Source: Protoeuglena noctilucae
Taxonomy: Eukaryota
DNA length: 64,000 nucleotides
Direction of reading: 5' to 3'
Assembly (NCBI GenBank): GCA_958009085.1
Contig: OY253678.1
Location: 124,001-188,000 of the forward strand
In this document: piece by piece, positions 754-64,000 of the stretch
How positions within the stretch are numbered: position 1 is the first letter of the stretch
Layout: each line of letters begins with the position of its first letter
Position numbers and translations under genes: made by a program
The notes under the pieces: generated by a model
Database searches by the model: none
Seen by the model: only the letters and a program-made list of their open reading frames with translations
What the model was told of the DNA's origin: nothing

Positions 754-3700
754 CTATGCGCTCTCTTCCCCCTCCGCCGCCCCTCCCTTCTTCCCCCCAC
801 CCTCCCCTCGCCCCTGCATCCCCCTACGCACGGCTGCCCTCAGCAGCACCTCGCCCTTCCCCTTTCCCTTCCCCCGGATACTCGACAGCCGCGCCGCACG
901 CTCAATCACCCCGTTACTGCTCGTGGTGGTTGCCTCCACAATCCCCCGTCCCTCACCCCGCCCCTCGCTCTCACCATCCCCACTGCCACCCTCCACCATC
1001 GCCGCTCCATCCCCACCCACTCCATCACCCCCACTCTCATCAACACCCTCGCCCTCATTCCCCGCACTGCCACTCCCCCCCGCCGTCTGCGACTGCGGCG
1101 GTGACGGCTGTGGTGGCGGTGGCACCCCCGCCTTTTCCAGTTTCTCCCGCAGGATTCGAACCCGTCTCTCCCAGGGCACGTTCGCGTTCCACTCCCAGTA
1201 GGGCACAGAGACGACGGTCCACCCCAGGGCTCTCAGGAGGCGGTGCTTGAGGAGGGAGCGGCCCTGTAGAGAGGGGAGGGGTGAGTGGGGTGGTGAGCGG
1301 AGTGATGAGTGGGGAGTGGTGGTGAGTGAGTGGGCGAGTGGGGAGGTGAGACGTCAGATGGTGTGAAGTGGTGATTGCAGGGTGACGGGTGGGTGGAGAG
1401 TGTTAGGCTTATAAGCTACATTTCAACACCAACACCAACAACAGCCACATGTACCCCATCCCTCGCCTGCAGTTCCCGTCTGTTGCGGTAGAAGTGCAGC
1501 GGCCCGTCCACCTCAATCGCCACCATGCAATGCGGCATGGCGATGTCGATGGTGTACTCGCAGCTGTGCTCGAGTGTTGCGATCGATGGGGGGTATCCCA
1601 GCTGCCGGATGGCGCGGAGGACGTCCAATTGGAAGCGGGAGACTGGGGGGGGGGAGTTTGGGTGTGTAATGAGGCGGTGTGATGAAGGGGAGGGGTGGTG
1701 CATGTGGGCAGTGCACTTGAGAGCATGAGACTGGGGGGTTAAGGGGTGAGGTGCAAGGGTCAGGGAGACCAACTTAACCATCTCCTACCCTGTACCACTC
1801 CTATCACCACCCCCTCCACTCTTCCCTAACCACCCCACTCACCGCTCCTCATCTCGCACGTCTTGCCCACCTCCCAGCTCCTGGCCGCCCGGTCCTTCAT
1901 CCTCCCGTCCTCAAACATCGCAGCCATCGCCGATGAGAAGTCCTCGGGGGCACTCGGTTTCAAATGTGGGGCTTCTAATTTGGTCGCCAGATCTACCTGG
2001 TACAACTGCCACAGCTCCGACGCATTCATCGACCCCACCAACTGCGGGAATAATTAGGAAAATAATATTGGTGATAGTCATAGTCATAGTCATAGTAATA
2101 GTAATAGTAATAGTAATAGTAATAGTAATAGTAATAGTAATAGTAATAGTAATAGTAATAGTAATAGTAATAGTAATAGTAATAGTAATACTATCATAAA
2201 CTCACCTGCGCGGCCCTCTGCTTGATCTTGGCCATCTCTGGGGGGTACACCCCGCAGCACGCCAGCGCCCACAGCACGTTGCATGCCGCCTGGCCCCCCA
2301 GCGCCGGCCAGTGCTGCGCCATCGCCGCCGCCAAGCGCCGCAGCAGGTTGCGCGACACCTCGCTCTCTGGTGCCAGCGCCGCCAGTGCCGCCGCCACCAT
2401 CCCCGCCACGCGCTGGTTGACCGGCTGAGCATCGGGATCCATAAACAGCGATGACGAGGTGAGCTTGTTGGGCGGCGCGGTGCCCATCCCCTCCCTCGCA
2501 TTAGGCCCGCCGGATGCGTCGGTTTTGAATCCGGTGGATTTGAGTGCCGACTCGGTCAGTCCCGCGCACGCCTCCAGGAGGGCGGGGTGGGCGTGGCCGA
2601 GCCTGGAGGGGGCGGGTGGAGGGATGTGAGGACGTATGATTTGTATGTAGAAATGGTAGATACTAGATATGTTTCAGTGCGATTTACAATATATGTGCAC
2701 AGAATATCACACGTTATCGGTCCGTACAATGCATTTACCCTCCTCCACTCGCCTTGCGTAGCTCCATGCCACCATCCCCACCGTCTGCGGCGGGAATTGA
2801 AACGTGGACCCCGCCCGCACCCTGGCCAGCAATGCCCCGGCAGCCTTATTCAAAAATCGACCATCGTAGGTGTCCGTGACGGCCAGCGCCCACAGCACGT
2901 TGGATAGGTAGCGTGGCCGCATCAGGCTGAGGGGGGTGCGGGAGGGGCGGGGGGGGCGGCGGGCGGGGCGGGGGGCTGCGGGGGGTGGGAGAGGGGGTGG
3001 GGTGGGTGAGGGATAGGAGGGGTGACAGCTATGCTTACGGACGAAAGAAGAGCGATTGTGGTAATGTGGGTGACAGGACAGCTCTCGCAACACAGCACCC
3101 ACCTCACACGCACCCGCACCTGCCCCCCACGCATTACACAACCCCCCCACCCTCCCCATGAATCTCACCTGTCCCCTCTCCCCGCTTCTCCCAGGGCGCA
3201 GCGTCATTCAAATCCAACGCCACCCCTCCCAACGGATCCTCCCACCCCATCCCCACTCCCACCCCATTTTCAAATGATGATGACCGTGATTGGTCGAATG
3301 AGACGGGAGACCTCGGTCGTTTGGAAGGCGAGCCGTCTCGACCCATAGGCGACCGTGATCGACTCACATACGATCCTTCCCGCCCATTGCCACCCACCCC
3401 ACGCTCTCCCCTTCCCCTCCCACCCGCACCCGCACTCGCACTCGCACCCGCACCCGCACCCACATTCCCACCCCGCACTCGCCCACTCCCTGTCGCCTCG
3501 CTCCCTCGCATTGCCCTACCCGCACTGCCCATCTCACTCCTCCCCTCATCTTCTGAACCCTCACCGCTGCCACCCCCACTCTGGCGCCCGCCCTTGCCAG
3601 AAACGGCCCCCTGACTCACGCCCGTGTCAATCTCGGTGTCCCAGGGGTCGTCTGTCAGATACGCCATCATCTGCAAAAACACGAACGCGGCATGCAACGC

Positions 3701-6520
3701 GTGAGATGAGATGACGAGGCGGTCGCGGCGGTTTGCTTTGAGACACCGACTGTGGTGACTCAGCAGCTGCTCCATCACCCTCACATTCACACACCCACAC
3801 TGCTACCCACACCCACACCCACACTCGCCTGACTCAGCAGCTGCCCCATCCCTCTCGCACCCACACACAGGCACACTGACACCCACTCTGACACTCGCCT
3901 GACTCAGCAGCTGCCCCATCCCCCCCGGCAGTGACCCCACCCGCGGCCACGGACCATCCCCGCCCCTCCCCCACTCCACGCACCCACCCTCGCCCTCATC
4001 CCCCATGCCCACACCCACACCCATACCCCCATCCCCACTCCCCCCCACCACCCCTGCACCCTCAACCCCACCCTTGCTTCCCGCACCAACCACTCCCCCA
4101 CCCTCTCCAGCTTCCCCCACACCCCCGCTACTCACACCCCCACCCACTGCACCCCCACCCTTCCCCCCACCCTCACTCACACCCCCATTCCCACCCTTCC
4201 CCGCGCCCTTCCCCCCACCCCTCTGCCCCCCCTGCAGCGGCCCAAAGATCGACCCCGCCTTCCCCGCCTTGGCCAAATGGTAGTGACCGATAGCCGATGC
4301 TATGTTTGCAAAGTCAGCGTCCCTCGGTCGCAGCTTCATGGGCAGGGATCCCTGCCTGGCGCGCGTGAGGGTGGAGAGGGCCGATGCCGACAGGGCTGCG
4401 GGAGAGGAGAGAATGTACAGTTAGACCTGTTGTATGAACAGGACGGTCCATGCACATGTGTACAACTGTGCTGTATCCATCACCCGGTCTCATCCCCATC
4501 ACTGACCCACCCAGTACACTATTCCACACACACCACTCACACCCACCCACACCCCATCCAAGACCCCCCACACCCGCACCCCCACACACCCCACACAAAC
4601 ACTCACCCTGGAACGCCCCGTCGTCGAAGCACCGCGCCTTGCTGAGCGCCAGGAGCATCCCCGCCGCCTCTCGGAAGGTGAACCGTCGCGCGCATCTCTC
4701 CGCAGCACGACAGAGCGCGGGGAGGGCATCTTTGGTAGAGGCATCTGCGCCTGTCGCCACGTATGCCCATGTCACGTTGAAGATGGCCTGGGGATCGAGC
4801 GTCGATATGCGGGAGGCCACGGTTGGCCATAGATTGGTCAGAAAGGCGCGGGATGACTCGGGGGACAGGGACCCGTTGGTCTGGGATCGTGCTACGCTCC
4901 ACATCACGATGCCCAGCTCGGCCGGCTTGGTGAGGCGGTCACGGCGGTCCTCGGCGGCGCGGAGGAGGCCTGGGGGGTAGATGGGGGTAACGGTGGTGAT
5001 TAGATGTTGAAAATTAGATGTAAAAACAATTATACTGTTATACTGTTTGCAGTTATAATATGGTTGTGTCCGATTGATTGTGCGGACAGATGCGCACGTG
5101 GGGGGCGAGAGGGAGAAGGGAGGGAGGGCGAAGGACCTGTTCTTCTCTTTGCCACGAACACACAGCGCATCGCAATTAACAGCCACCTAGTATACACCCG
5201 CCCCCTTTTGCTCCTCTCACCCTGCACCAGCTCGGCTGTCCCGTGCCCGACCAGTGCGTGTGCGTACCATGCATTGGCGAGGGCCTGGGTGTCGAGATCA
5301 GAGATGCGAGCCAGCACCAGGTCGCAGCAGGCGGCCAGGCGGGGGTCGGTCTTGATGCGCTGGACGCGGTAGGCGGGCTGGCGGTCGCAGAGCTTGGCCA
5401 CGTGGTAGAAGGCCGTGACTGGGAGGGGGGTGCGGGGGGTGGGATAGGTGAGGTGGGGTGGGAGAGGGGTAAGATGTGACGTAATGTGATGGTTTGGCGA
5501 CGCGGTAGAAGGCCGTGACTGGGAGGGGGGTGAGGAGTGGGGGTTTGATGCGGGGAGTGGTACGTGTGATGTCGGCAGGTGTGGTGGTAGAGGGGTGATG
5601 TGGGAGAGGGTGTAAACCATGAAGGTTTGGCTGTATGGTACAGGGCCATTACGTCATTGCAAGGGGGGTGTCGAGCGAAGAGTCGTGCACACCGTGAGCG
5701 ATGTAACGCTCTGCATTAAGGGACCGGCGGGTTCTGCGCCTGGCGCGCAAGTAGCTAAATGCCCACACCCCGGACTCGAACCACGCACCGGCGTTGACGT
5801 AGCTGAAGGACTCCCCGCGCAGCACCACCAAGTCAAGGATGTCTTCGGGGTCGGTCGCAGCCAGGATGCGGCCGTTGATCGCGATGCACTCGCGCGTGAA
5901 CTCCTTGCGCGCCTCGTCGCGCGGACTCGGCTGCGGGGGAGGGGGCGGGGAAGGGCGTCGCGCGGGGTGATTGTCGAGGTACGTCGCGCATTGGAAGGCA
6001 ATCCGAGGGGGCGCATCGGCGCTGCTGCGCGTCCCGTGCATGGCACCTCGGATTTTGGATCATCTGCTGTCGCCACACGCGCGCCCTGGCCCGCTCCGAA
6101 AAAAGAAAAGAGGCCCGGAGCGTCCGCACGATCCGTCCCCTCCCCGCGCACCGCCCGGGCGGCGAGCGAGGGGCACGCCGGCGCCGCGCCGCGCGCCAGC
6201 CGCCGGAAACGTGCCAGTGACGGACCTGGGCGCAAGAGATGGCGGACCTTGAGGGCTCCACGCGCCGCTTTGCTCGGGAAGCAACGGAGCAGCGAGAACG
6301 CGCAACCGCCCGGCCGCCGCAGGGACTCTCAGCCCCCGAGATCATCGCCCACAAAGCTCGGTATTGTGACCAGTGCCAGGCGTTCGCTCGGGCGGCGAGC
6401 ATCGGAGCGCACGAGCTCTCGCGGACCGATAAGCTCGCGGCTACCCGCTCCGGCCTCACCTGTCACGGAGGCGCCGCTGCGGGCGGTAGCCCTCGTCCCG
6501 CAGCCACCAACATGCCTCAT
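754..6520 (-). CDS. OPR (octotricopeptide repeat)/RAP-domain organellar RNA-binding protein, ~12 exons
   Basis: RAP motif IDIAMPHCMVAIEVDGPLHF...|GRSLLKHRLLRALGWTVVSVPYWEW. Helical repeats include TQALANAWYAHALVGH, PQAIFNVTWAYV, PRYLSNVLWALAV and PQTVGMVAWSYAR|LGH. The Arg/Ala-rich N-terminus from ATG 6520 was inferred through two introns. Confidence 0.85.
2071..2192. repeat. (ATAGTA)n hexanucleotide microsatellite in an intron
   Basis: Near-perfect tandem gtaata/gtcata units. They generate the spurious poly-VI and poly-L ORFs in the track. Confidence 0.95.
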
Positions 6521-7250: not shown

Positions 7251-8619
7251 ATGGCGCCCGCGACGCTCCACCACGGCGCTCGCTGCCCGCTCCGTGCCGC
7301 GCCCCATCCCTGGCGCCTGCGCGCGGTCCGGCTGCTGGACTCTGTTTCCGACCCGAGGCGTGCCCGGAGGCCGCACTCGCTGCCGCAGGAGTCGAGGAGT
7401 GCGGCGGGGGAGACCCAACAATGGGCGCCCGCGCGCGCCGGGGGCGCGGAGTTCTCCGACACGCCCCGCGCGATCGAGGCGAGTGCAATCGTTTGCTTAC
7501 ATGCGTGCCGGAGCGCGGTCTCTGCGCCGTCGGATCGCGAACGCGCGGAGCTCCCGCACCGCCCCCGCAGTCGCCGAGTGCGAGCACGGGGCCGCCGGAG
7601 CTGTCGCGACAGGTGGAGGAATTGCGAAGGGAGATGACCGAAGTGTCGGCGCTGGTGCGGGAGCAGCAGGAGACGATCCGGAGGCTTCGGGAGGAGCTCG
7701 GTGTTGCGCGAAGGGGAGGCGAAAGCGAAAACAGCGATGCAGCTTCGCCTTCTGACGACGCGCCGGCCACGCAGCGCCGGACGCTGTTCTGGCGCCCGGA
7801 TCAGCACGCCGCGCACGGGACGGCGGGGTCGCGCGCGAGCGGGGCCGGGCTGTGGACCCCCGGGTCGGTGCCTGGGATGGGCGAGGGGCTGCGGGCGGGG
7901 CCCAGCAGGCGAGTTGCTGGTGTTGGTGTTATGTGTATGTGTGTGGGCGATACTGACTTGAGAATCGATGACACAGTAGGGTCAGAGAGCATGTCAGAGT
8001 GCATGCGACTGCAGTTGCACAGTGGAACGCTAGACCCCTCACCCACTCCCCCCAGCCCCCTCCCCGACCCCTCCTCGGACCCCACGGACCACCGCGGCAG
8101 TCTCCTGGAGACGCAAGCGCGTTTGGCATATTACGACCGTCGGCTGGTGGGGTCCTTCGACGCAAGATTCCACTCGGCGTCGTGGGGCGCCACTCCCAAG
8201 GATTTCCGGATATTGCCCGCCCGCATTATTCTGGTCAGGCACGCGCAGTCGGAGGGGAACATCGACAACGCCGCCTACGCCAGCATACCGGACAACAAGA
8301 TCCCCATCACGGGTGAGTTGGGTGGGCGTGGGGGTGAATATGGTTGTGAGGGATGAACTACCCGTTTCACCCAGGCATGTTCAACTTAAGTTGTAAGTAA
8401 TTCTACTTGAATCCGCTTGCAGAGTTGGGTCGCCAGCAGGCGATGCAGGCGGGGGCGGAGATACGGGAGGAGCTGGACCGGCTGTATGGCGGGGAGGACT
8501 ACAAGGCGAGTTGTTAAAAGAGAATGGTGATAGTGATAGTAACATCGTTAGATGTCGTGACTTGTGTTGCAAAAAGATGGTGAGTGGTAAAGTGGTTATG
8601 CCGCTTGTTCATAAACAAA

Positions 8620-8674
<55 letters not shown>

Positions 8675-9895
8675 CCCTCTCTCCCACCCCCAGGTCTTCT
8701 TCTACACCTCCCCCTACCCCCCTACCGCCGCTCCTTTCAAACGTACAAGGCGATGGCGATGCTGGACGCCTTCCGGGACGACCAGGTCGCGGGGTGGCAG
8801 GAGGAGGTGCAGCTCAGGGAGCAGGACTTCGGGAACTTCCAGGACCCGGAGGTGAGTATGACTATGACTATTTGACTATGATGTCCACTACACAGGGTGA
8901 CTATAATGTGCAACAACTACTTGCATTTCACAATATAACTGTGTAACTAGTAGTAACCACATGGATCTGACCCATCCATTCATTACTGCTTCCACGTTCT
9001 CAATCCCCCGTCGTTGTTACACAGGGCAAGCAGCGGGAGAAGGCCGAGCGCCTGCGCTTCGGCCGCTTCTTTTACCGCTTCCCGAACGGCGAGTCCGGGG
9101 CCGACGTCTACGACCGCATCACTTCTTTCCAAAACACGATGGTCCGCGACATCAACGCGGGGCGATTCTCCAGCAACTGCTCGCTGGTGCTCGTCATGCA
9201 CGGACTGGCGCTCAGGGTGTTTTTGATGAGCTGGTTTCATTGGACGGGTGAGGGGGCACTAATAATAAGTAATAATGTATTAAGCATAGTCATGTGCATG
9301 TCTCACTCCACGAATAGGCGGACACCTGGGCTGCCTCCTGCGTAGGCCGCTCCCATGGAACGTCTGAGAGGGGCGAATGGACAATATGATGTGTGTATAA
9401 TATGGGCCGTTCACATGACTATTCACGGTATTCATTTTGTACAGATTGGGAACAGTGTTCACGTTATAGTCATTATAATTATTATAGTGAGCATTATTGT
9501 GTAGAACAATAACATGGTAAAATATCGACAACTATCATCATTGTTATCAACTCTTCGTCTACCTCCTCCCCCTCCTCTCCCATCCCCCCAGTCGACCAGT
9601 TCCTTCGCGTCTACAACCCCTCCAACGCCACACCCGTCATGCTGGACCGCAATTACTACGGGTGGGACCTCACGCCCCAGGGCACGTCCTGGATCCACAC
9701 CAAGGCCCTTTACACCATGTCCAAGAAGTCGAGGGAACGAGTCAAGGGAATAACGGACGACATGTGCTTCTGCAACTACCTCCCGGGCAACCCCAGCAAC
9801 TGGCACTGATGGCGTGTGGCGATGCCAATACTGATATGGGCACTCATGCTGGTACTGATGCCAATACGGATGGCTGGTATTGGTGCTGGCATTGA
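7251..9895 (+). CDS. Histidine phosphatase / phosphoglycerate mutase-like protein (AT74H/DET1-like) with an apparent frameshift at 8718-8725
   Basis: RIILVRHAQSEGN, VFFYTSPY, LREQDFGNFQD, FGRFFYRFPNGESGADVYDR and LVMHGLALRVFLMSWFHW are spread over spliced exons. The N-terminus resembles a transit peptide. TGTAA at 10076. Confidence 0.85.
8622..8670. repeat. (CA)n microsatellite just upstream of an acceptor
   Basis: About 24 perfect AC units in intron 8506-8693. Confidence 0.95.
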
Positions 9896-10075
9896 TGGTA
9901 TCTGGCACTGATTGCTGCCACTGAGGTGCTACTTGGTACGGGGACACTGGCGGGGTATTTCGAATGTTGGGGCGAGGCGGCGTGAACGAGGCAGGCAGGG
10001 TCGGGGTACAGCGTTGATGGGTAGTTATTGAGTAGCATTGGGATGCCTTTTTTTAGGATTGCTCAACTGTCTGTT

Positions 10076-10194
10076 TGTAATTGTTGAAGAGAGGGACGCG
10101 TCCATTTGGCGAGCGACATTGGTCGTTGCACTTCCAACAGCTGTTATTAATCGTCGCAATCGGGACTGTCGTTAACTGCGATGTGTCCTTTACA
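10076..10194. promoter_or_regulatory. Convergent chlorophyte TGTAA polyadenylation signals
   Basis: TGTAA on + at 10076-10080 after the phosphatase gene, and on - at 10190-10194 after ARSA1. Similar elements lie at ~571 (+), 24318 (-), 33865 (-) and 53168 (+). Confidence 0.6.
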
Positions 10195-10496: not shown

Positions 10497-13400
10497 TCAT
10501 TTCGAGTCCCACACCACCATTCCGAAGTACTGCAGCCCCGCCACCCCCCTCACTTCCATGTCGATGAGGGGCGCCGTGATCTGCTGCAGCCGCCGCATGT
10601 CGGGGTCGGTGCGGAACATCTCGAAAGCACGGTCCTGGTCGCGGCGCTGGGGACGGGGGGAAGGAGAGGGGAGAGTAGTAATAATGAGTTGTGGTAAATA
10701 ACAGTGATAAATAACAGTACTACTGTTATTCACTAGAGGTGCTTTAGAACTGCTTATCTGTGAACCTGACCCCCCTTTGCTCTCTCCATTCCATTCCCTT
10801 ATCATCCCTTGACAGGCAAACATGCGGCTCTGGCGTAAGCATGTGGGTGATGTGGTGGTGTGGCCAGGCATACAGCTCTGGCGTGCGGGCATACCAACCC
10901 AGCACACAGCAGTAACTCCCGCGCACACGCATGTGGGTAGGCGTTGCGATGGAGCCGACGCGGTATTAGGAGGGTATGGACGCATGTGAAAGCCAAATGC
11001 CTGCCTAACACCGCCCCATCACCCACATACCAGCCATCCCCCATCACCCCAACACCACCACCCCTCAACCTCACATCCACATAACACCCATCCCCACCAA
11101 ACCCCCCCCCCTTCCCCCCCAACCCCCCCTCACCCTCATTTCCACGTACTTGTCCGCGGCATCGACCGGCACTTTCTGATTCACCACCAGCCTCTTGACA
11201 GGCACGCCCTCCTTGCCCAACGCCACGCACAGCCGCCTCGACTCGGCCACTGCCATCGCAGTGGGGATGGTGACGATCACGAACTCGGTTGCAGCACGAT
11301 CGCGGAACATGCGGCGGGCCTGGTCCATTCGGGACTGCAAACGTTCCAAAGATGCCAAGGCGCTCTCGGCCGCCTCGCGGGCCGCGGCGTCGCGGTTCGA
11401 ATCCTGGGAGCGGCCGGTCTGCATCTGGGGGGAAAAGGGTGGTGGTGGTTTGAATCCCAAGGGTGGCAGTTTTGTCCGCAGCACTGCCATCATGCACATC
11501 CCCCTTACCAGGTTCCCCAGCACCCCGCTGATCGATCCCCAATCACTGTCACTATTACCACGACTGTGTCCACTAAGCATCTCACCAGGTTCCCCAGCAC
11601 CCCGCTGATGCCCGCGGTGGCGTCCAGGATCCTCTTCCGCAGCCTCACGACCTTGCCCACGGACTTGTCGAGGAAGTCGGGGAGAGAGAGCAGGCGCAGG
11701 GTGTGGCCGGTGGGGGCCGTGTCGAACACGATGCGCTGCAAGGGAGGGGAGAAAGGGTGGGTGTGGAGTTGGTCGAAGGAGGCCATGGTTATCAGAGTGT
11801 TGTATTGTATTATGTGCATGAGATGGGTATGTGTGGAGGGTGTGGCCGGTGGGGGCGGTGTCGAACACCATGCGATGGGGTGGGTGGAGGGGGGGGGGAG
11901 GTGTGGGGTTGGTTATAACAACAGTGCGTGGGGTGGGTCTGTGTGGTGGGTGTGGTGAAGCTGTTAACAGACACGATGCAACACTGCTCACACATGGCCA
12001 CCACACCATGTAATGGCAACACTGACTGACTAACCATCAACACCAATCACCTTGAAGTGAGCGTACTCCGGATCTCTCAGGAACTGCACCACTTTGGAGA
12101 TGGCCACCGCCTCGTCCACCCCCGGGGGCGCAGAGTCCAGCAATTCCCCCAGTCGCAGATCCCTCAGCTGCTCCGCCACCCCGCCCATGCCCAGGCCCGA
12201 CAACGCGTCCTCGAAGGCCTGAGGGAGGGATTGAGGGTGAGGAGTAGTTACAGAAATTAGATATAGTTAACAGATATTCAGCACATGACAGGGCGCCCTC
12301 AAAGGCGTGGGGGGAGTGGGGGATAGGTAACATGGCCGTCGTTATAATCATGAGACATGGGGGAATGTGAGACCGTTATTAAGAGACCAGTCGATGTCGA
12401 TATCATTTCCAGAAGATAAGGAAAAGCTGACATGGCTATAATCATCACATGCCCCCCATCCACCATCCTCGCCTTGGTGTCGCTCTTGGCGGCCAGGTCC
12501 CTCAGCTCCTTGCGCGCCTGCTCGACGTCCACCTGTGCGTGGATCAAGAGAATTATATTGATAACAAAGAGATGAGCGAGACGGACATGGACAGCAATGC
12601 AGCCACCCCACAATGCACCAACACCAACACCCCACCCCCGCATTAACATCCCACCCCACCCCCATCCATTCCCACCCACCTGCATCCCCCAGAGCGGCAG
12701 TTCGATCCCCGGGAAGTCCACCCTCACGGGTAAACCCCCGCTTACATCGTAATCCAAACAGTCCGACAGAGAGTGGGCGGGGTCGGTGGACACGATCAGC
12801 GTGGGGTAGCCGTCCGACGCCAGTTTCACCGCCAGTGAGGCGGACAGGCTCGTCTTGCCCACGCCGCCCTTGCCGCCAAACATGAAGAATTTGCGCCCTT
12901 CTGACAGGTCACGCGAGAGGGCGATGCTGGTGGCGGTGGTGGCGGTGGATGTGGATGCGCCATTGGTGGAGGGAGTGGATGGCTGCTGCGACATTTCGGT
13001 GTAGCCGCTGTCCGCGTTCCACACTTTGGCGCCGAACCACTGCAAAGGGGGGTGAGGGAGATGGGGCCGATGGGATGGAGCGTATGGGGGTAACATGCAA
13101 GTCAGGCGGTAAATGTCTGCGACAGGTGAGAGAGTGCGGATGAATGAAATAGGACAGCTATGCATCTCGCCTGCAGCGCGGTTATCCCCCTGACTTCGAT
13201 CCGCAACACAGTACCACGATACCCTCGTCACGTCATGCCCATTCCCATCAGCAGTATATAACTTGTTTGTAACTCGCCTGCAGCGCGGGTATGCCCCTGA
13301 CCTCCACGTCCACCCGGTCCACATCCACGCGCCTCAGCTGCCCCAGTGCGGGGTCGCTCTCAATGGCAGCCATGGCCCTGGCCTGGTCTTTGAGCTTGGC

Positions 13401-15301
13401 AGCGATGAAGGTGGGGACATTGGAGGGGCGCAGGACCTGGGGTTGGGGGGGAGGTGGGGGGTCGAGAGGGAGTGGGTGGGGTGGTAATGGGTGAGCACGG
13501 GTGGGTGGTGGGGGGCGATGGGAGAGTGGGGTTGAGAGGGAATGGGTGGGAGGGTAAGCGAGAGCGGGGCTGGAGTGGGTGTCATGGGAACAGGTGCGTC
13601 TGGCAGCATTCATGATTATGCGCTTGCAGGGGATGCCTCTTCACATCTACAAGCCCTTTACCTGGTTGATGATCATGCGCTTGCACGGGATGCCCTCCTT
13701 CCGCAGTTCCCTCAGCAGCCTCCCCGACTCGGTGGCCGCCAGCACCGTGGGGATCGTGGCAATGACGAACTCGGTCGAGGACTCGTCGCGGAACAGGGAC
13801 GCGACCTGGGGGGAGAGACGCGAAATGGCATTTAATAACACTGGTTACCAAGGCAATAACCTGGACAGTGAATTGGAAGGGCACAACGGCAGGGCATTCA
13901 CACATATGCCTCCTGGCTACAAGCACCTCGCAGGTAGTTTCGCATCGACCTGTCCTACTTACTCAACTCCCCTCCCTCGCCCCGTCTCTCACCTGCGCCA
14001 CGCTGGCCCGGGCACCCTCCATCTGATCCACAGCGCGGTCGAGCGCCTCCGCCCCTCGGCCGAACATGACCCGCACGAACGACCCCGCGCCCGCGACCTT
14101 GCGCCGCAGCCGGCTGATCTTCTCAATGCTGCGGTCCAGGAAGTCGGGCAGCGACAGCAGGCGCAGCGTGTGCCCTGCAGGGGCAAGGGGCAGGAGAGAA
14201 GGTGCAGTCGCAGTTACGTTGCGTGGCGACGCGGAGGAGCCGCTGCGCTCGGATGCAGTGAGAGTTTGCAACATCATTCCGCTGCATCGAGATGCCGCTG
14301 CGATCGGGCGGACCCTCTGCAGAGGAGTGGCCTCGCCAGCTGCGCCGCACGCACCGGTGGGCGCCGTGTCGAAGATGATGCGCGTGAACTTGGCGTACTC
14401 CTCGGAGTTGACGAATTGGACCACTTTCGAGATGGCGATCGCCTCGTCGAGGCCCGGGGGCGGCGTGTCTAAGAGCTCTCCCAGCTTGAGGTCCGTCAGC
14501 TGCTCCAAAACGCCACGCAGGCCCACCTGCGACGTCCAGTCCTCCACCTGCAGGTTGATGAGCATAGGAAAAAGAGGTCCGCGAAGCGGCAGCGCCTGAG
14601 GCCGCGCGCGGGCCCGCACGCAAGCAGTTTTCTTAAGTTGCACAACACCCATCGCCCCTCTCCGCGCCGCCCTCGCCTTCTGCTGCGTCTCCTCCTTCTC
14701 CCATTCCCTCCGCAGCTCCTCCTTGGCCTGCTCCGGGTCGATCTCCATGCCCCACAGCGGCAGGGACGTGCCCTCGACTGGGACCGGCCGGCCCCCGCTC
14801 AAATCCTGCTCCAGCGAGTCGCCCAGCGAGTGCGCGGGGTCCGTGGAGACCACCAGGACCGTGTGGCCCTCCATCGCGAGGCGGACGCCCAGCGAAGCCG
14901 CGAGCGACGTCTTGCCCACGCCCCCCTTGCCCGACACCATGATGTACTTGCGCGCCGTGCCGCGCGAGAGCTCCTCGAGCACCGATTCCCCCGTCGCGGC
15001 CGACGAGATCTCCGCTGCGCGACACACCAGCGCCCGGTTCGGGGCGCGCGCGCGACGCGGGAGGGGCGCGGACCGGCACCCAGGTCCCTCGGGCGCCGTG
15101 GGCCCCGCGCGGGGCCGGGCGGCCGCAGCTCGCGCGCGCGGATGTCGCAGGGGGGCGTTACGCGCGAGAGGCCCCGCTTGCAACGCCGTCCTGCACGCAG
15201 ATAGGGGTAAAGGGCCATCTCGCTGCGGCTACCATTTGCACGTCCTAGCGCGCGCGCCTCGCTGCCCATGAATGGCTCGACGGCATCGCCAGCAAGCGCA
15301 T
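10497..15301 (-). CDS. ARSA1: Two-domain ArsA/GET3-family ATPase, plastid-type (ARSA1-like)
   Basis: Two complete ATPase domains, each with [41 protein letters not shown] and V(I)TIPT. They are joined in frame by [14 protein letters not shown]. The transit-like N-terminus ([19 protein letters not shown]) was inferred through a short intron at 15191-15257. Confidence 0.88.
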
Positions 15302-15908
15302 AAGCCAAGAGACATCCGACGCGGCGCCGGATCCGGGGAGCGGTCTTTCGAGCGCGCGCGATGCGAGGTCGTGGCGTGAGACGATGTTTTGAGGCCATGC
15401 GGGACCCCGACCAGCTCGGGCGGGACGGAGCGTGCTTTGCAGCAAAATTGAAATCGTCCCTCAGGCGTGGATGACTGTTAAGGCGCGAATCCTCGCCTGT
15501 GGTGGAAGCATGCACTTGGTGGCGACAGGATCGCCATGGCTTCGCGTGCGGTGGCCGGCTGCCCCGACAGGGACGAGATGGGAAGTGCCAGCCATCGCAA
15601 AAGGCTCGTTCGGCTCAACGGCGGGGCTCGCAACCTCCCTCTGGCGACAGACGCTGCGGCACAGCGTCGTCCTGCCAGCTGCCCAGCAGTCGATTCGATT
15701 CTGGGGTCGGTGGCAGGGAGCTGGAACATTGGATGTCCTGAACCCCAATCCTTGTCTTGGATTTTTAATCACCGTGTCCGTATTTACGGAATGCACGACC
15801 TAGTGCTGCTAACATCTAGTTCTATCGCCACGAGACTCGACGAGAGTCACGAGTCCCGACCTTGCATGCATACGGCGACAAGCCCCCCCACACTCCCCCG
15901 TGCTGTCA

Positions 15909-29270: not shown

Positions 29271-33442
<4,172 letters not shown>

Positions 33443-43832: not shown

Positions 43833-43999
43833 TGCCCCGTTGCCATCCCGGCGTGGTCTCTCGGCCGACCCTGCGGCCCGGGTGTGAATAATCTCGTGTC
43901 GGGACTCGCGAGCAGGGCGTTGCGCCCGTGCGACACCTTTCATTGCTGAAAAACGACGCGAAGGAGTGTGAATCAGGCTGTCGCGGTCCGAGAGGACGG

Positions 44000-46900: not shown

Positions 46901-49900
46901 TTCGCAGGCACGGAACGCGGTCGCAGGGGAGGGCGGGGTGGAGGGCGGCGATGGGGGCGCGCCCTCGTTGCGGCGGCGGAGCCTGTCGCAGCCCAAAGAG
47001 AGCCAGGGGGACGGGAGAGAGGAAGGTGAGGGTGCGGGGCGTGTTTATGCGCGAGGGAGGGGCTGAGCACTGCGGGGTGTTGGTGATGACAGGGGGGTGT
47101 GGGCGTGGTTAGCTTGAGTGCAAGATGGTGTCTTTGATGGAAACATAGATGGGTATCAACAGAAGTACCGACATCATGGATTCCTCTTCTCCTCTCAGGC
47201 ACAGCATTCACACGAGAGGCCACGGCCCCAGCCAACAACGGTCGCAGTCGCCTGGGCACCATGTCCCGCCACAGCACCGCCGAGGCACCCCGGGCAGAGA
47301 CCAGAGACGGTGAGGGATGGGCAGAGAGCAGGGACGGCGAGGGATGGTAGAGAGCATGGGTGGTGAGCTGCAAACATACTGGGACAAGGGATGCCAGCCA
47401 ACACTTGTTCCTCGACTCGACAAACCCTAATCCACCCGTACAAGCCCTTTCCTAACCAGCCCGCCGCCGACAAGCACCCCCCCCACCCCTTCCCCCCCAG
47501 CCCGCCAGTCCATGCGCCGCTCCACGGAGGCCCGCCTCGCCAACCGCGGATCCATTGACAGCGTCAGCACCACCGCCAACACCGCACCGGGCGCCGCGTC
47601 CAAGAACTCGTCCCTCGGGCGGCAGGGGGCGAGCGACACGGGGGACGAGGCCGCCCCCAGGCACGCTTCCCTGGGCAGGGCTGGCCCTTCTGCAGCCGCC
47701 GCAGCCACAGCCACAGCCGCGGCCCGCCCCGTCCCATCCACCACGTCGCTGGGGTGCGGGCCCATGGCAGCCCCGGGCCCCGACCGCGGGCGGCTGCCAT
47801 CGCTGCCCGAGGACCCCACATTGCAAGACGCTGCGAATGCAGCCGCACCCGCGCGGCTGGCGGGGGTGCGGGAGGAGGAGGGCCTGGAGAGCTCTCACCC
47901 GAGCCAGTCGGCAGCTGAGGAATTTTCGAAAGAAAAGTACCCCAAGGTGTCGGCGTTTGAGGGCGGGGGCGGGGAGGTGACGGGGTACGACGGCGAGGGG
48001 GGCGGGGGACTGTTCAAGGAGAGGGGCGGGAGCGGGGGCAGGAGCCCGTTCGCGAGCAGCCGTGATGCGCGATTGTCCAAGCCCTCCCGCCTGCGGGCCA
48101 AGTCGGGGGGGGACGGGGCGGACGGTGCGCCGGAGCCGGCGTTTGGCGAAGACAGCTTCCGGTGAGGGTGCTTGCGGGGTGGGTGTGGTGCTAATTTTGG
48201 GCCCTCCTTGCGCAGTTGTCTCCATCCCCATTCCATACCATCTCCCTGCTCCACTCCCCCAGTCGCACTTCGCAAGAGCCCTCGCCCGTCTCGGCCTTCA
48301 AGGCCAACGCCAAGGCCTCCCGGGCATCCCGCGCCTCCATCAGTGACAAACTCACGGGGTTCTTCCACCGCAAGAGCCAACACCTGACGAACACGGAGGC
48401 CAACCGGGGATCAAGAGTGTCCCAGGACTCGGGGGGGCCCACGAGCCCCACGGCCAAGGCGGGGAGACGGAGGTCCATCGGGGTGAGGGGACGACTGTAA
48501 CTGATGACTGCGCCGTGTTGCATATCGCATGTGTTTGGATGCGAACAATGAGCTCTTGGTAGGACAGCCGTTGCTGTTAAGGGAAGGTGTGACCGGTGTG
48601 ATATGATCCCCCATGCTGTGACCCAACTGCAGGCGTTTGGCGCAGCGCTGCGGAAGGAGGACGTCAACATGTCTCTGGATGCCCTGCGACGCACCGCGCA
48701 TGACCCCCTCTACTGGGAACTGGCGAGGCCCTTCTACCGCATCGCACACCGGTCGTACCCGGCCCTGTCGATGGTGAGGGATCCATGATGGCGTACTGCT
48801 CTTGCTTACTACATATTTCTGCCTGGCTGGCTTGCTGTTGCTCAGTAGCAACTCCTGACTGATGGGCTGTCAGTCACAATCGCCTCTATCTTGGTCTCGA
48901 AGTCGCAATCCCATGCAGGAGCCCTGCGCGCTGCTTGCTTGTGACTCTCTTACTGCCAATGATTGCCACTACTTACACCCGCGTCCCTTCTCACCTCACA
49001 GGAGCCCAGCGTGCACGCGGGGGTCTTCCGCACCTGGTCCCTCTCCCAGTCCCCCCGGCCGGGGTTCGAGGTGCTCCACGCCATCAACGTGTTGAGGAAC
49101 GAGCTCGTGGTCGTCAAGCTGTTCAACATCAGGCTCATGAACGACGCGGCCGTGAAGGGGGTGGCGCAGGAGGTGCTGGTCAGGCGAGTGACGTCGGGGA
49201 TGCATGCAGAGCCGATGCCAGATATGTCCATATTCGTGATATGTGACTGTACCATGTATCAGATATCAAGCAGGCGACTCGCCACCTGTGCACTGGTGAC
49301 TCCTGCCATCCGCTGTTGCTTGTCGCATGCACTGTTTTGGCAAGGCGATGCCTCGATCAACACCCAACGCCCAGACACGACGCACATCCTCACATCCCCA
49401 CATCCTCACACCCTCACATCTTCACCCACCCCGTCCCACTTTTGTGCTTCCAGGGAGACGCTGTACCACCGCGGCCTGGATCCCTACGTGGGCACCTTCG
49501 TGCACGGGTCGGTGATTGGCGTGGTGACGCGCGCCAGCACAGCGGGGGACTTCCTGCGACACGCAGTCATGGACACTCCCTTAGGTCGCATGGATGAGAA
49601 CTCGGTGGTTGCCAGGGTGCTGCTGCCCGTCATGATGGCCCTGCAGCACATGCACGCGCGGGGGCTGGTGCACCGGAACGTGAGGCCCGAGTATGTCGTG
49701 GAGGGGGTGTCGGGGGTGGCGAGATTAGGGGGTCTGCAGCACGTGGCCAGGGCGGACGAGAGACCCAGCAGCCCCATCGGGCCACTGGACTACATGGCAC
49801 CGGAGATGATACTGGTGAGCATAAATGGTTGGTGGCATTATTGATTGCAAGCAGTGGATCGGCTTAGTGGGCCACTGGACTACATGGCACCGGAGATGTG

Positions 49901-59094: not shown

Positions 59095-62000
59095 ATGACT
59101 CTGGTCCCGAGGTGCTCCTGGACCCGGGGAACCACAACCTCCCGTTCCGGATGAAGCAGCATCGCATCAGGTGCGGGGCAGCTGCCTCGCCGTTCTTCTC
59201 GCATCGATTGCGCTGCCCCGAGCTGCTTATCTCCGACTACTCGCAGAGCATCGCAAGCTGACCTCGTCATTCTGTTCGACCTGAACGGCGTCTTGGCATG
59301 CCGGGACAACAACAAGCCCCGCCGCGGGCAGGTGCGACGCGGCTTGGCTGGGCCAGCTGCAGCCGTCGAATGCCTCGCGACGTCTTTTGCGCATGTCATG
59401 CAGCTCACGGGTCTCTAGTGTGCATGCACGTATCGTTGCCTGCCCCTCTCCTCAGGTGCGGCGCAAGTATCACGTGCGTCCGGGGGTGTCCCACATCCTG
59501 GCGCTACTGGGGGGCCTTTGCGCGGGCCAAGACCCCTCCCCGGTCATCCACTTGGGCGTCTCCACCTCCGCGACTCGCCCCAGCGCCATGGCGGCCCTCG
59601 CGGCAATCCACAGCGCGATGCTGCAGGAGGCCGGGCAGCATCCCGACTGGCCAGGGTCGGCCTTTGTCAGGGCCAACCGCGACGCCATTGCGGCTGGAGC
59701 CAAGAGGTGCGGTTTGCGGGGCGCACGTTGGGCTTTGGGGGCGCCGGTTGCAGCGTCACGCGCGTTGACAGCGACGCGCTTTCACGGAGGGCTCATCATG
59801 CTTGCGGTGCAGGAGTTGGTGGCTATCCGACAGGTACAACTCGCGAACGAGGAGTGACGAGGACGGGGCTGCAGCCGATGAGCCTGGGAGCGATGCGGAG
59901 GGCGCCACTGGCAGGGGCTACTGGGCAGCGGGGTGCAAGAATGGAGGTGAGAGATATGGACGCAGTTGGCAGGCACCTCATGGAGAGCCCCGTTGTGCAC
60001 CCACGCAACACATGGCCCACACCCGCGCCCTCATACCCACCCCTTGCCTCTCCCACCGCCCCCCATGCCCCTCACCACCTCGCATCATCCTCGCTTCTCG
60101 CAGTGTCCTCCGCGTCTGGTTTCGACGACCCCGACGGCGTCGGAGTCTTCCGCTGGGTCCTCTCCCGCGACTCCTGCGTCCCCGTGTCGGCCGTAGAGGG
60201 GGCCTTAGGCAGCCACGACTGGTCCATCGTCAAAATGCTCTCCAGGCATTTCGTGGACACCTCCCGCGTCGTCCTCGTCGAGGACAGGCGAGGCTGGGAC
60301 CACGCGGGGCGATGGGGCAAGATGCGTACCTGGCAGGGCCACACCGCTCCCACAGCCCGACTTGCCCCGTCTATCCTTGGCATTCCTCGGCAATGCCAAT
60401 GACATTGACGCACACAGTCGTCTCTCATGGTCACCACCGCCACTGCTGCCCTCCCTCATCTCACCGTCCCTTCCCATCTCCCCCACCCGCAGTGCTGACA
60501 AGGGCCACCCCTCGGAACTGCCCCACATGATCCTGGTGCCAGAATTCACTTCAGAGGACCGCACGCAAGGGTGGGCTTCTAGGGACGACAACGTGCTTCG
60601 TGCTGTGGTGGAGGGGGTGGGCGACTGGACGAGGGCACATTGGAAGCTGGGGGCGCGAGCGCGGGCGGCGGACGTGACGGCATCTGTGCACGGTGAGCGG
60701 GGGAGGTGACGGGCTTGCTTGCAGCCTTGAGCTTGTTAAAGTTGGTCGCGGTGACGTAGTTGTTACCACTTGTTGTTACGGTCTTTTGAGACGCTTGAGT
60801 GATTGCTGATCGTGCTATCCTCGCTCTCTGCCCCTGCAGCCAGGCAGGAGCTGGGGCCAGTGCAGGGAGGGGCGGGCCCAAGTGGGCAGGTGCCCGTGGC
60901 TGCCGTGGGTGCAGAGGAGGGGTCGCAAGGGGAACAAGCGCAGAGGAAGAAAAAGGCCAGGCATAAGAAGTGCAAGAGACAGGAGATGGAACAGGCGGGT
61001 GTCTCAGCTGTTGGGGCTGATGTGGATGAGACTGCGGTAGTGGATGATGCGGGTGGGGCGACGGGGGCTGTGGGGGTGGATGGGTCGTGGGCGGTGGCCC
61101 GGCCAAGGGGTGGTGCAGCGCCGGGGCAGGGGTGGGCGCGGGGCGATGATAGCGGGGATGACACTGTGGTGGGGTGCACGCGGGGTGACGGGAGTGGGGG
61201 TGGGCGGAAGCGGGTGCGGGAGGAGGGGTGGGCAGCGAGCGGGGATGACGCCCTGCCACCCCCGCCCGTGAGGAGGGCAGGGCATGCCACGACCTCCCAG
61301 CCACGGCAGGCTGCGACCAGCGCACCGACTGGCAACTGGCGGGACCAGCCGGTGGATCTGTTCGAGCCGCCTGGTCCCTCAGTGACCGCCTCGCGGGCAA
61401 GCGGCTGGCGGGACAAGCATACCGATGACTTCGCACTGCCTGGCCCTCCCACGAGAGCTGTGCAAGCGAGGGGCAGCTGGGGGGACCAGCCGGTCGATGT
61501 TCCCGCATTACCCTGCCCACCATCGACGGCTTTCGGGGAGGGCAGCTGGCGGGAAACGCCGACCGGCCCTGCGTTGCCAGGGCCCCCATCAAGAGCTCCG
61601 CAAGCAATGGGCAGCTGGCGGGATGAGCCAGTGGACGTCCCTGCGTCACGCAGCCCTCTCATGCAAGCTCCGCATGCAGTCATCACCTGGAGAGATTGGC
61701 GGGGCACTTGGAGAGATGAGCCGACGGACGTTCCCCCGTTCTCAGCGGCCTCTACGGCAGCTCCGCGCCGGCGCTCGGCCTCAACGTCGCTGTCAGCTCA
61801 GCCTCAGCCCCCTGTGTCGCCCGCACCGCCACCGCCGCACTCACAGCCATCGTCGCCTGCCCCGCCGGTGCCGCTCACGCTGGGGTCCGGGTGGGCTGAC
61901 TTTTTACAGTGCGTGACGGGCGGGCGCATCTTCATGTGCAACTCAGAGACGGAGAGCGAGTGCCTGGGGTGAGCGGCGTGAGTGACATTGACAGGCACCG

Positions 62001-64000
62001 GCAGACCTCACCCCAGCTGCGCCCTATCTAGCGCACCCATCCAGTCACCCTCCACCCCACCCCTCCCTTCACCCCAGCCGCACCCTGTTCGGCGCCCCCA
62101 ACGTCGACGCCATCTCCGCCATTCGCCCCACCACGGCCCTCTTCCTCTGCAACTTCGAGGCCCTCCACGTCATGGGGGTGTTTGCCATGCAGGGCGATGT
62201 GACATCAGCAGTGGGGAGGGCCCTCGAGCCCAGCGCGTTTGGGGGACGCTTTCCCTACCACGTCAGGCGAGTGTCACTGGTGGTACTTGATCAATGCCGC
62301 TTGCATCAGTGTCTTTCCATGACCACGTCATGGAAGCTGCTCTGGTACTCGCCCCCCGCGTGTCCATACGGGGTCCGCCGGCTCCCCCCTCACATCCCAT
62401 TTCACATCTCAACTTCCCTCCCACCCCCCCACCCACGCAGGGTCCGCCAGCTCCTCCCCGCCCCCGCCCCGCCCCTCCGCTTCGGCCACCCCGCGGCCGC
62501 CTGCCCCCCCGGCCCCACCGTCGACACCGCCGCCCTCAAGCAAGCACACCCGGCAGTGCTGGGGCAGGGCAACCGCCTCCGCACCCACCTGCCCGCCGCC
62601 ACCGCCGTCGACATCTGTCGGCTGTTCGAGGCAAGGCGATGGGAGGAGACGGCACAGGTGGTGCGGCAGGCAGTGGCGGGTGCAGTGGGAATGACGAGGG
62701 ACGCGATGCGGGGTGATGGCGGTGGTGGCGGATCAACGGGTGGCATCAGTGGTAATGAGGGCGGGTTGAAGGGTGGTGCGAGGGGTGGCGAGGGTGCAAG
62801 TGGGAGAGGTGGTGCGAGTGGTGGTGAGGGCGGTGGTGCTGGTGCAAGTGGGGCAGAAGATAGTGGACGGAAGGGCGTGAAGGGGAAAGGTCGGGGTTCA
62901 ACCCGGGGGTCAGCCGCCGCGTCTGCGGGGTCAGGGGAACGTGCTGCGTCGGTAGAGGGGCGACAGGCAGGGGAACGTGCTGGCGCGCAAGTGGTGACGG
63001 GGCCTGGAGAGGTTTTACTACGGCGCCGGCCATTAACGCTAATTGAGCTGAGCTCATCATCGGAGGAAAACGCGGAGGGTGGGAATGCGGGGAGTGGTAG
63101 GGGTGCGGGGTGTGGCGGTGGGCCTGAGAACGGAGGGACACCTGCGGGGCTTCGAGAGGTGTGCGACGAGGACGGCCGAAACAGCGACTCTGGCAGCGAC
63201 TCTGGCGCTGGCAGCGAGGATGGGTTGGCGTGGGGCGGGAACGTCACGGGTGTCTCACGCCCCTTGCGCGGCCCTCCTGCTCGGGTCTCTGTGAGCAGTG
63301 GGGGCTCTGAGGGGGCTTCGTTTGTGTCTCAGTCTCAGTCTTCTGATTCTGGGGACGAGTGGGTGGCTGGGGATGCGGAGGACGGCAGCGATGCGTCCGG
63401 GTACACGGTGTTTGGGGGTGGCAGTGGGGAGGAGTCGGGGGACGATGACCTGGGCATCAACGTGGTTGGGTTGGAAGAGGGAGGTGAGGTGGTGGGTGGG
63501 GATGGGGTGGGGACGAAAGGGGGTGTGGGATAAAACTATCAAGGAGACTGTGGTGGGTGCACGAGCTTTAAACAGTGTGACGTTGCTTCCCCCATCTTGC
63601 TGGCAGCCCTGGCGATGTGTGATCGAACCCCCACCCCGCTCGTGCTTGCAGCATTACCGTTGCGTGACCTGGAGGACCCCACCATGCCAGCCGCCATGCG
63701 CCTAAGGGGTGGCGCCCGTCGGTTCAAGCTCCGCAAGGCTGCCCCTGCCCCTCCCCTTCCCCCCGCGGCCACGGGGGGACTCCAGGCTTACGCGCACCTC
63801 GGCGACAACGTCAGGTGAGGGATGGGGCTGAGACCGGTTGAAGATAGATGGGAGATTGAGCGCTATGGACGGTTATGATAAGATGTCAAAACAACGCGAT
63901 GGAGAAGGACGGCTGGCTTTTTCGACCTCCGCCCACTCACCCACCTCAGCATCACTCCCACCACTACCACCGCACTGACCCACTCCACACCCCTCCTGCC
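59095..64000 (+). CDS. FCP1/NIF-like HAD domain + repeat linker + DCD domain protein, continuing past the window end
   Basis: NIF-like motifs LVILFDLNGVL, HVRPGV, VSTSA and VVLVED|SADK...MILVPEF. DCD-like GGRIFMCNSETESECLG|RTLFGAP...IRPTTALFLCNF...MGVF...EPSAFGGRFPYHVR. Confidence 0.7.
61325..61745 (+). repeat. Coding ~23-aa degenerate tandem repeat (GSWRD.PVDVPALPGPP) x6
   Basis: GNWRDQPVD, SGWRDKHTD, GSWGDQPVD, GSWRETPTG, GSWRDEPVD and GTWRDEPTD, mostly at ~70-nt spacing. Confidence 0.85.

Follow-up and report, generated by a model that had tools for sequence, protein, structure and literature searches.

The locus analysed here, a 64,000-nucleotide stretch of DNA from Protoeuglena noctilucae (the window), raises the question of whether a eukaryote can begin a large share of its introns with GC instead of GT, and by what route it would come to do so. 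In animals and plants, U2-type GC-AG introns make up 0.4-1.2% (PMC1557818; PMC6310983), and compensation by a stronger consensus elsewhere is a textbook property of such introns (PMC1557818). The original prediction proposed a very high use of GC-AG introns in the window, set against a baseline of about 1%. The frequency found is indeed about 15 times the plant average of 1.2% (PMC6310983), but that baseline omitted GC-rich algae with 8-60% (PMC3033335, PMC4028052).

Direct proof comes from a gene encoding an ArsA/GET3-family ATPase (Table 1), in which RNA contigs from two runs of one study show that 4 of 11 spliced introns can be read only as GC-AG (p 6e-6 against a 1.2% baseline). The joints are present in RNA runs X1 and X2 and absent from the DNA-like run X5. 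The RNA alignment covered window positions 1-20000, the joints are among those listed, and unlisted stretches are uninformative; within the same limits, RNA run X3 contributed no joints. An in-frame GT alternative that had been feared at 14676 is eliminated by a direct joint. Position 15257, by contrast, had been put forward as a donor and is contradicted by the RNA, which removes it within the intron 15496-15191; the donor of that intron is another GC site (in the table, as in the text, a slash marks the splice boundary).

Table 1. Established and candidate introns with GC donors in the window, and the transcript in which four of them were tested by RNA.
Feature	Coordinates	Strand	Evidence and remarks
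Two-domain ArsA/GET3-family ATPase transcript	10497..15586	-	11 RNA-defined introns, 4 GC-AG and 7 GT-AG; spliced frame open; Pfam ArsA_ATPase
GC-AG intron	12219..12472	-	donor AAG/GCGAGG; RNA joint; no equivalent shift gives GT-AG
GC-AG intron	13040..13277	-	donor CAG/GCGAGT; RNA joint
GC-AG intron	14548..14676	-	donor AAG/GCGAGG; RNA joint
GC-AG intron upstream of ArsA domain	15191..15496	-	donor CAG/GCGAGG; RNA joint; overlooked in the original prediction; encloses 15257
GC-AG intron, plant-type KARI	31075..31270	+	gapless in 84/86 aligned rows; donor-neutral alignment; gene model
GC-AG intron, DUF3110 gene	23808..23933	+	exons join at Pfam profile positions 43/44, contiguous; gene model
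GC-AG intron, helical-repeat/RAP-like gene	2603..2752	-	gene model; indirect RNA, piece ends at 2600
Probable GC-AG intron, histidine-phosphatase gene (5' part)	7479..7570	+	RNA piece begins at 7569; absent from gene model
Probable GC-AG intron, RAP-like domain	1264..1466	-	frame fits; model picked a different site; in-frame GT 12 bases downstream
Uncertain GC-AG intron	3671..3898	-	open frame only, low-complexity; duplicate donor copy at 3828
GC-AG intron	7909..8055	+	gene model
GC donor, intron to 8693 (original prediction) or 8749 (model)	8506..8749	+	gene model; frame
GC-AG intron, meckelin/TMEM67 gene	18528..18732	-	gene model; Pfam
GC-AG intron, ribosomal protein S15 gene	27788..28006	-	gene model; Pfam
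GC-AG intron, protein kinase gene	45783..45950	+	gene model; Pfam
GC-AG intron, protein kinase gene	46359..46600	+	gene model
GC-AG intron, protein kinase gene	49184..49453	+	gene model
GC-AG intron	60288..60492	+	gene model; NIF label without Pfam confirmation on single exons
GC-AG intron, DCD-domain gene	62267..62440	+	gene model; Pfam
Additional GC intron	16113..16276	-	donor ATG/GCGAGT (not AG); gene model
Additional GC intron	21611..21755	-	gene model
Additional GC intron	28255..28405	-	donor CGG/GCGAGT (not AG); gene model
Additional GC intron	28632..28713	-	gene model
Additional GC intron, doubtful	60995..61272	+	GAG acceptor; gene model

The 19 donors originally listed (counted there as about 18) all read AG/GC, and 18 of them AG/GCGAG; 15257 reads AG/GCGCG. 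A self-trained gene model recovers 15 of the 19, missing 1466, 3898, 7479 and 15257. At 31075, a motif in ketol-acid reductoisomerase (KARI) had been thought to force the GC donor. The gapless join stands, but a donor-neutral alignment favours GC with one of three homologues, the Chlamydomonas protein (best GC 113, best GT 102), and the other two do not separate GC from GT. For the intron starting at 2752, the end of the RNA piece at 2600 indicates a GC start, since left-shifted joints give 2600 only in that case. RNA support at 7479 is weak, with eight upstream AG/GY sites fitting the start of the piece, two of them GT. The position of the 1466 donor would agree with the spacing of the RAP domain. 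Past 8693 the frame is broken, which leaves 8506 with two candidate acceptors. When single exons were compared with Pfam, OPR, RAP and NIF domains were not found.

More widely, GC donors open 204 of 1,062 introns (19.2%, Wilson interval 17.0-21.7%) in the gene model, which spans 664 kb on 16 contigs, the 2.5% of the genome sampled for intron comparisons; in the window alone the model counts 20 of 109 (18%). The decoy classes GA and GG supply three and seven donors in the same set, and remain at 0.3-1.8% across model fits. With the GC prior fixed at 1.3%, 197 of 1,111 model introns are still GC. The share is flat with intron rank (18-20%) and with the number of introns per gene (19-22%); GC and GT introns of the model are equal in length, and the most GC-rich introns show a raised GC share (30/46 vs 40-42%). 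Base composition is 64% GC in the window and 64-68% in 15 blocks, comparable to the roughly 65-70% of high-GC-AG algal genomes. Extrapolation from the sample gives about 8,000 GC introns in an estimated 44,000 genome-wide.

Counts that involve no gene model agree: AG/GCGAGT occurs 2,254 times in the genome and AG/GTGAGT 1,029 times, so that GT has mostly given way to GC at the donors that match U1 best, and the excess over reversed-pattern controls is 1,641 vs 358, or about 82% GC. In the window, AGGCGAGT occurs 12 times where Markov models of orders 1-4 expect 2-3, and AGGTGAGT occurs four times. That most GC calls are annotation artefacts at introns using nearby GT donors is the least credible explanation of all. 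The model was seeded on ArsA, the gene that supplies all the direct RNA, and has visible errors at 1476 and 30171; refitted with GT only, it shifts 156 of 239 GC introns to an in-frame GT, so that part of the 19% may be GT when judged without RNA. Such a reading is nevertheless contradicted at the four RNA-tested sites, by the low decoy classes and the genome-wide word excess, and by homology that forces GC donors in PRP8, KARI and DUF3110. The abundance is thus genuine: about one-fifth of introns in Protoeuglena noctilucae, a small marine green alga, are GC-AG, a share well above 5%, as in high-GC-AG algal genomes (by model introns, with RNA from one gene).

The GC donors are set in strong contexts. 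By weight matrices and duplex energies they match the U1 5' end better at the other positions than GT donors do, and 160 of 204 read AG/GCRAG, which bears out the expected compensation by the exonic AG and positions +3 to +5. The exonic AG itself, predicted to be invariant, is frequent rather than fixed (by the gene model, A at -2 in 90% and G at -1 in 98%), and +6 is G in 38%, T in 32% and C in 22%. The GC share is 5%, 5%, 14%, 40% and 93% at donors with 3, 4, 5, 6 and 7 positions matching U1, the last value probably being too high because CAGGTGAGT, with 347 copies genome-wide, is under-sampled (3 vs about 9 expected). By duplex energy it is 4-6% at -5 to -9 kcal/mol and 47% below -11. AG/GxGAGT donors in the model are GC in 44 of 55 cases and CAG/GxRAGT donors of the sample in 25 of 27. 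Among the 25 most frequent GC donor words the U12-type donor motif GCATCC does not occur, the donors being GCRAG, and no branch-point word is prominent in either class of sampled introns. These appear to be ordinary U2-type introns, handled by a major spliceosome whose snRNAs are canonical.

An altered U1 or U6 snRNA that reads GC donors had been proposed as the cause, and is very improbable. The only U1 gene found, by Rfam model and DNA search, has a canonical 5' end, the ACAGAGA box of U6 is canonical and U5 loop 1 equals the Rfam consensus; with these pairing sequences unchanged, the proposed snRNA change is unsupported. The U1 5' end is likewise canonical in Aureococcus and Micromonas (PMC3033335). 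Neither search found a variant U1, with 41 of 427 first-look candidates scored, and the U1 gene scores 65.9 bits against an Rfam cut-off of 69.5, which leaves a very divergent second U1 conceivable.

The explanation we favour, and hold to be somewhat probable, is that GC-biased substitution fills +2 wherever surplus pairing with U1 makes the change nearly neutral, with canonical snRNAs throughout. GC donors are found almost exclusively where the remaining site pairs very well with U1, through the exonic AG and an intronic RAG. At such donors a U-to-C change at +2 would be cheap, and strong AT-to-GC substitution pressure would have converted most of them, bringing the C:T ratio at the best sites (about 80%) near that of weakly constrained positions; weaker donors retain GT. 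Plants and animals tolerate GC somewhat less, since here it is common also one step below a perfect match, and the cause of this wider tolerance is probably protein-level or weak selection.

Base composition offers a yardstick for this account. At putatively neutral positions C/(C+T) is 0.72 (intergenic, G_G context), 0.74 (four-fold, G_G), 0.83 (four-fold overall) and 0.86 (two-fold), and the GC share at AG/GxGAGT donors is no higher than the 0.72-0.83 range (p 0.12-0.79), whereas that at CAG/GxRAGT exceeds 0.72-0.74 (p 0.009-0.016). Intron interiors in G_G context reach only 0.44, so the neutral yardstick varies with the class chosen. Other flexible splice positions are likewise pushed to G or C: +3 is G in 971 model introns and A in 61, and acceptor position -3 is C in 1,020 and T in 9 of 1,052. 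Genomic GC has been linked to the GC-AG fraction (PMC3033335, PMC4028052, PMC7072748), yet Micromonas RCC299, at 64.1% GC, has 2.7% GC-AG (PMC3033335), and in the PRP8 loci of other eukaryotes 1 of 48 resolved junctions is GC; genomic GC content alone is therefore insufficient.

Rather less likely is a change in the spliceosome proteins of the clade by which GC is tolerated alongside GT, and even favoured at perfect donors, where the full GU-U1 duplex would be too stable for hand-over to U6. Perfect GT donors are scarce, and the PRP8 protein differs from the consensus at 54 of 1,377 columns that are at least 95% conserved in 84 other representatives (3.9%, vs 1.4-1.6% for two named chlamydomonadalean rows). 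Thirty-six of these columns are altered in the Protoeuglena noctilucae genome and both GC-rich relatives, and a cluster lies in the RNase H-like domain (T1783S, I1822V, V1826T, G1867T/S/A, M1868L, H1875N and P1912N in human numbering), which borders the cavity to which fidelity alleles have been mapped (PMC9177961). The shared changes may, however, merely mark the clade, and in yeast PRP8 the residue corresponding to G1867 is Ala (PMC9177961). Against protein change stand also the GC share at the best sites, within the neutral range, the persistence of very stable GT duplexes (117 GT vs 102 GC donors below -11 kcal/mol), and the presence in the genome of U1C, LUC7, SNRNP27 and METTL16 (similarity of the second U1C exon to the human and yeast proteins is weak, E 0.02-0.16). 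A protein-level change in Protoeuglena noctilucae is possible, and the shared PRP8 substitutions are a candidate lead. PMC3033335 left the origin of GC-AG-rich genomes an enigma and suspected protein components.

It is improbable that the GC donors were seeded by a past, now decayed wave of introners (intron-generating elements) of the kind known from Micromonas pusilla CCMP1545 and pelagophytes. The PRP8 gene has 13 introns (by the model) in Protoeuglena noctilucae, none in the metagenomic relative L078 and a single one in L079, and just one of the positions is common to another sampled eukaryote, a pattern pointing to lineage-specific intron gain; in one set of neighbouring gene pairs, 1 of 5 intron positions is shared. 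GC donors are in phase 0 modestly more often (116/160 vs 113/184, p 0.039), and the introners IE-A1 of M. pusilla are 53% GC (PMC3879977). Nevertheless, none of the 204 GC introns, used as blastn queries against the 1,062 introns of the sample (2.5% of the genome), matches another over half its length; at this coverage, families that are small or old might escape. None of the 204 has ends resembling terminal inverted repeats, boundary repeats are equally long in GT and GC introns, and the start of the next exon does not mirror the donor dinucleotide, as duplication-born donors would (p 0.41). One GC intron figures, as subject, in a weak match of low complexity.

The relatives speak against introners too, since L078 and L079, with their intron-poor PRP8, are also heavy users of GC donors. 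One intron at the same codon and in phase 0 reads GAG/GTGAGC in Protoeuglena noctilucae and GAG/GCGAGC in L079, in this single intron a direct switch at +2 as read from the aligned sequences. Raw word counts do not clearly separate the two relatives from other metagenomic loci, so their GC trait rests on individual junctions; being common to at least two relatives, in small numbers, it appears to predate Protoeuglena noctilucae. In a KARI tree (one gene, with no prasinophyte named among its rows) the window groups with Pedinophyceae sp. YPF-701 (SH-aLRT 92; 74% identity), outside the clade of Chlorophyceae and Trebouxiophyceae, and the organism probably belongs to the pedinophytes. The literature searched gave no account of abundant GC-AG introns in this group, though supplementary and species tables could hold a figure, and the text of the YPF-701 preprint does not mention splicing.

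The lineage is thus new, and the kind of trait is already known from GC-rich algae. Iwata and Gotoh (2011, PMC3033335) gave GC-AG fractions of 39.6% for Aureococcus anophagefferens, 22.2% for Micromonas pusilla and 7.7% for Chlorella sp. These genomes resemble the present case in high genomic GC, the order of the GC-AG fraction, a canonical U1 5' end and an AG acceptor, and differ in lineage; an excess of GC over GT at the best U1-matching donors, as here, is not reported for them in the cited part of that paper. The GC excess of M. pusilla CCMP1545 is tied to the introner family IE-A1 (PMC3879977), and GC donors in Pelagomonas were reported on introners (10.1101/2021.10.25.465678); no such families were found here. 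Emiliania huxleyi shares a genome of about 65% GC, donors ascribed to base composition and mis-prediction by GT-centred tools (PMC4028052), but is a haptophyte with a far higher fraction of GC donors (56-64%) and some GA donors (PMC4028052), whereas in the present alga GA and GG donors do not rise above background, and GC is restricted to strong contexts. Animal and plant GC-AG introns follow the same rule of compensation by U1 match and also switch between GT and GC at orthologous positions; in this alga they are some 15-20 times commoner, and outnumber GT introns at perfect-match donors.

Since 125 of the 216 multi-exon genes of the model contain a GC intron, annotation centred on GT will go wrong at many junctions in this alga, and probably in its relatives, as the original prediction foresaw for standard gene predictors. 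A more far-reaching proposal, at present rather unlikely, is that a green-algal clade, probably the pedinophytes, combines canonical snRNAs with a remodelled PRP8 RNase H-like domain, prefers GC at fully U1-complementary donors and keeps GT only for imperfect ones. If true, U1 duplex stability would be capped in this clade, which would provide a natural, introner-free system for the protein determinants of fidelity at +2. The best-studied green-algal case of GC-AG abundance is confounded by introners; here an excess without introners found, tracking the match to U1 and common to relatives, makes mutation pressure versus spliceosome change a testable question.

All 19 donor sites of the original prediction read AG|GC (exon end|intron start), 18 of them AG|GCGAG. 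We aligned contigs from four runs, three metatranscriptomic and one DNA-like, to window positions 1-20000. The transcript of the two-domain ArsA/GET3-family ATPase gene (10497..15586, -), present in two RNA runs of one study (X1 and X2), has 11 joints, none of them found in the DNA-like run (X5); its listed pieces match the window with zero mismatches, and the reading frame is open once spliced. With all equivalent shifts enumerated, four of the 11 joints are readable as GC-AG only (12472, 13277, 14676, 15496) and seven as GT-AG, a GC share with p = 6e-6 against 1.2%. The predicted high use of GC-AG introns is confirmed overall; three sites are uncertain and one, 15257, is wrong because it lies within the RNA-defined intron 15496-15191. 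RNA piece ends give indirect backing to the donor at 2752 and weak backing to that at 7479. At 8694-8750 (+), within a histidine-phosphatase gene, an 8-base direct repeat breaks the frame right after the acceptor at 8693; X5 is the same as the window here, and either the allele is frameshifted or an AAG acceptor at 8749 is used.

Protein homology places further GC junctions. Donor-neutral alignment of PRP8 gives GC at two of 12 resolved junctions (best GT 119 vs 133 and 74 vs 124), one of which joins exons exactly at human residues 1505|1506; the same pipeline gives one GC among 48 resolved PRP8 junctions in other eukaryotes (11 loci, some redundant). In the plant-type KARI gene, the junction of intron 31075..31270 (+) is without gaps in 84 of 86 rows, and GC outscores the best GT with the Chlamydomonas protein, two other homologues giving no clear choice. 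The GC donor at 23808 (intron 23808..23933, +) joins the DUF3110 exons at profile positions 43|44. Splicing-factor genes carry GC donors of their own: two homology-backed in PRP8 (L076-L077), one likely by inspection in U1C (L065, about 1872) and one called by the model at the METTL16 locus (L070, 1906).

The genome around the window comprises 26.3 Mb in 27 contigs, with a GC content of 64-68%. A gene model was trained on 664 kb (the window plus 600 kb from 15 other contigs) with the second intron base (+2) free, starting from T 0.85 and C, A and G 0.05 each and a seed matrix of seven ArsA GT donors. It calls GC 239, GA 4 and GG 11 among 1,116 introns with a shared matrix, and GC 210, GA 18 and GG 20 among 1,123 with own matrices; introns found by both number GT 848, GC 204, GG 7 and GA 3. 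The GC share is 12-28% in 16 of 16 blocks (20/109 in the window), and 197 of 1,111 introns are still GC when the prior is held at 1.3%. The coding-to-intron transition score flags 95 of 323 AG|GCGAG words, against 13 of 148 GA and 28 of 184 GG equivalents. The model recovers 10 of 11 ArsA introns, not independently since it was seeded on ArsA, and has known errors at 1476 and 30171. Under a GT-only model, 156 of the 239 GC introns move to an in-frame GT, 22 go out of frame and 61 are left without an acceptor. Model-free genome-wide counts are 2,254 for AGGCGAGT (reversed control 613), which in the window reaches 4-6x Markov expectation, and 1,029 for AGGTGAGT (reversed control 671; n = 4 only in the window).

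GC donors are strict (-2A 90%, -1G 98%, +3G 88%, +4A 89%, +5G 96%; AG|GCRAG in 160 of 204), and GT donors are looser. As the U1 match improves, the GC share rises from 5% to 40% at 6/7 positions and 93% (25/27) at 7/7, the last figure being probably too high, with about 80% safer, because CAGGTGAGT occurs 347 times in the genome, yet 3 times in the sample vs about 9 expected. Among AG|GxGAGT donors, 44 of 55 are GC. GC and GT introns in the model sample show no difference in length, acceptors or gene rank. Acceptors in the 664-kb sample are CAG in 1,020 of 1,052 and TAG in 9, with no prominent branch-point word. A near copy of the flanking exon end and splice site lies inside 44 of 1,032 model introns, vs 0 in three shuffles (window 10/103, C14 8/63 and C15 9/55 among the sampled blocks, zero in five blocks); this looks like local tandem duplication producing decoy splice sites.

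Examples of exon-end copy pairs in the window
Position	Paired with
3828	3898
11507	11582
13170	13277
16571	16697
16951	17026
32313 and 32385	32476

Mutation-selection balance is the best reading of the GC donors: at donors with surplus pairing, a C at +2 would be almost cost-free, and GC pressure would then fill that position. Neutral C/(C+T) is 0.72-0.86 at intergenic and synonymous sites, in agreement with the GC share of the best donors, and other flexible splice positions are likewise G/C-loaded; intron interiors reach only 0.44. Micromonas RCC299, with 2.7% GC-AG (PMC3033335), shows that GC content alone is insufficient, and therefore we infer some added tolerance of GC donors. The altered U1/U6 recognition first proposed finds no support in the snRNAs: the single U1 gene found by Rfam model and DNA search has a canonical 5' end, and the U6 ACAGAGA box and U5 loop 1 are canonical. 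The main rival is that altered proteins actively prefer GC at perfect donors. U1C, LUC7, SNRNP27, METTL16 and PRP8 are present; PRP8 is off consensus in 54 out of 1,377 highly conserved columns. Columns of this kind that are altered both here and in two metagenomic relatives (L078, L079) number 36; several of them lie in the RNase H-like domain, to which fidelity alleles map (PMC9177961). The changes common to the three genomes may be only clade markers.

In the KARI tree (one gene), Pedinophyceae sp. YPF-701 and the window group together (SH-aLRT 92); at 74% identity, the source is a different alga, probably also a pedinophyte. A meckelin/TMEM67 gene with about 18 introns (15909-22472, -) is consistent with a flagellate. 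Two divergent genes, presumably ankyrin-repeat-like with an F-box-like start (38160-39194, -; 40438-42276, +), are apparently without introns, unlike the region around them, which is rich in introns. Scanning metagenomes with a PRP8 exon gave 80 loci, among them the relatives, at 89% (L078) and 84% (L079, neighbours syntenic) amino-acid identity, which form a clade with the present genome (FastTree 1.0). L078 has GC at three of six introns, all in one kinase gene for which homologues provide no GT able to compete; where exactly the first of them lies is ambiguous. In L079 the model calls GC at five of seven, one doubtful and two homology-backed. One orthologous intron with identical flanks has GT here and GC in L079. 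Introners are an unlikely source of the GC donors, as the 2.5% of the genome that was compared shows neither families of similar introns nor inverted repeats nor unusual boundary repeats, and the relatives share the trait with an intron-poor PRP8. PRP8 has 13 model introns here (L076:2691-10000, L077:1-2968), only one at a position common to any other sampled eukaryote, vs 0 in the relative at 85.6% nucleotide identity and 1 in the other. This points to large-scale, lineage-specific gain of introns that left no surviving introner families, and because of it an introner wave, since decayed, is a conceivable though improbable origin of the GC donors.

High GC-AG fractions are reported for Aureococcus (39.6%), Micromonas pusilla (22.2%) and Chlorella (7.7%), with canonical U1 (PMC3033335), and for Emiliania (56-64%; PMC4028052). 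Other papers give the compensation rule and GT/GC switching (PMC1557818), and baseline levels with a weak correlation with GC (PMC6310983, PMC7072748). The M. pusilla excess is linked to introners (PMC3879977); no such families were found here in 2.5% of the genome. A literature search, covering papers without supplements, found no report of GC-AG abundance in pedinophytes. The phenomenon is a known one in a new lineage, here with no introners found, GC dominant at the best donors and the trait common to relatives.
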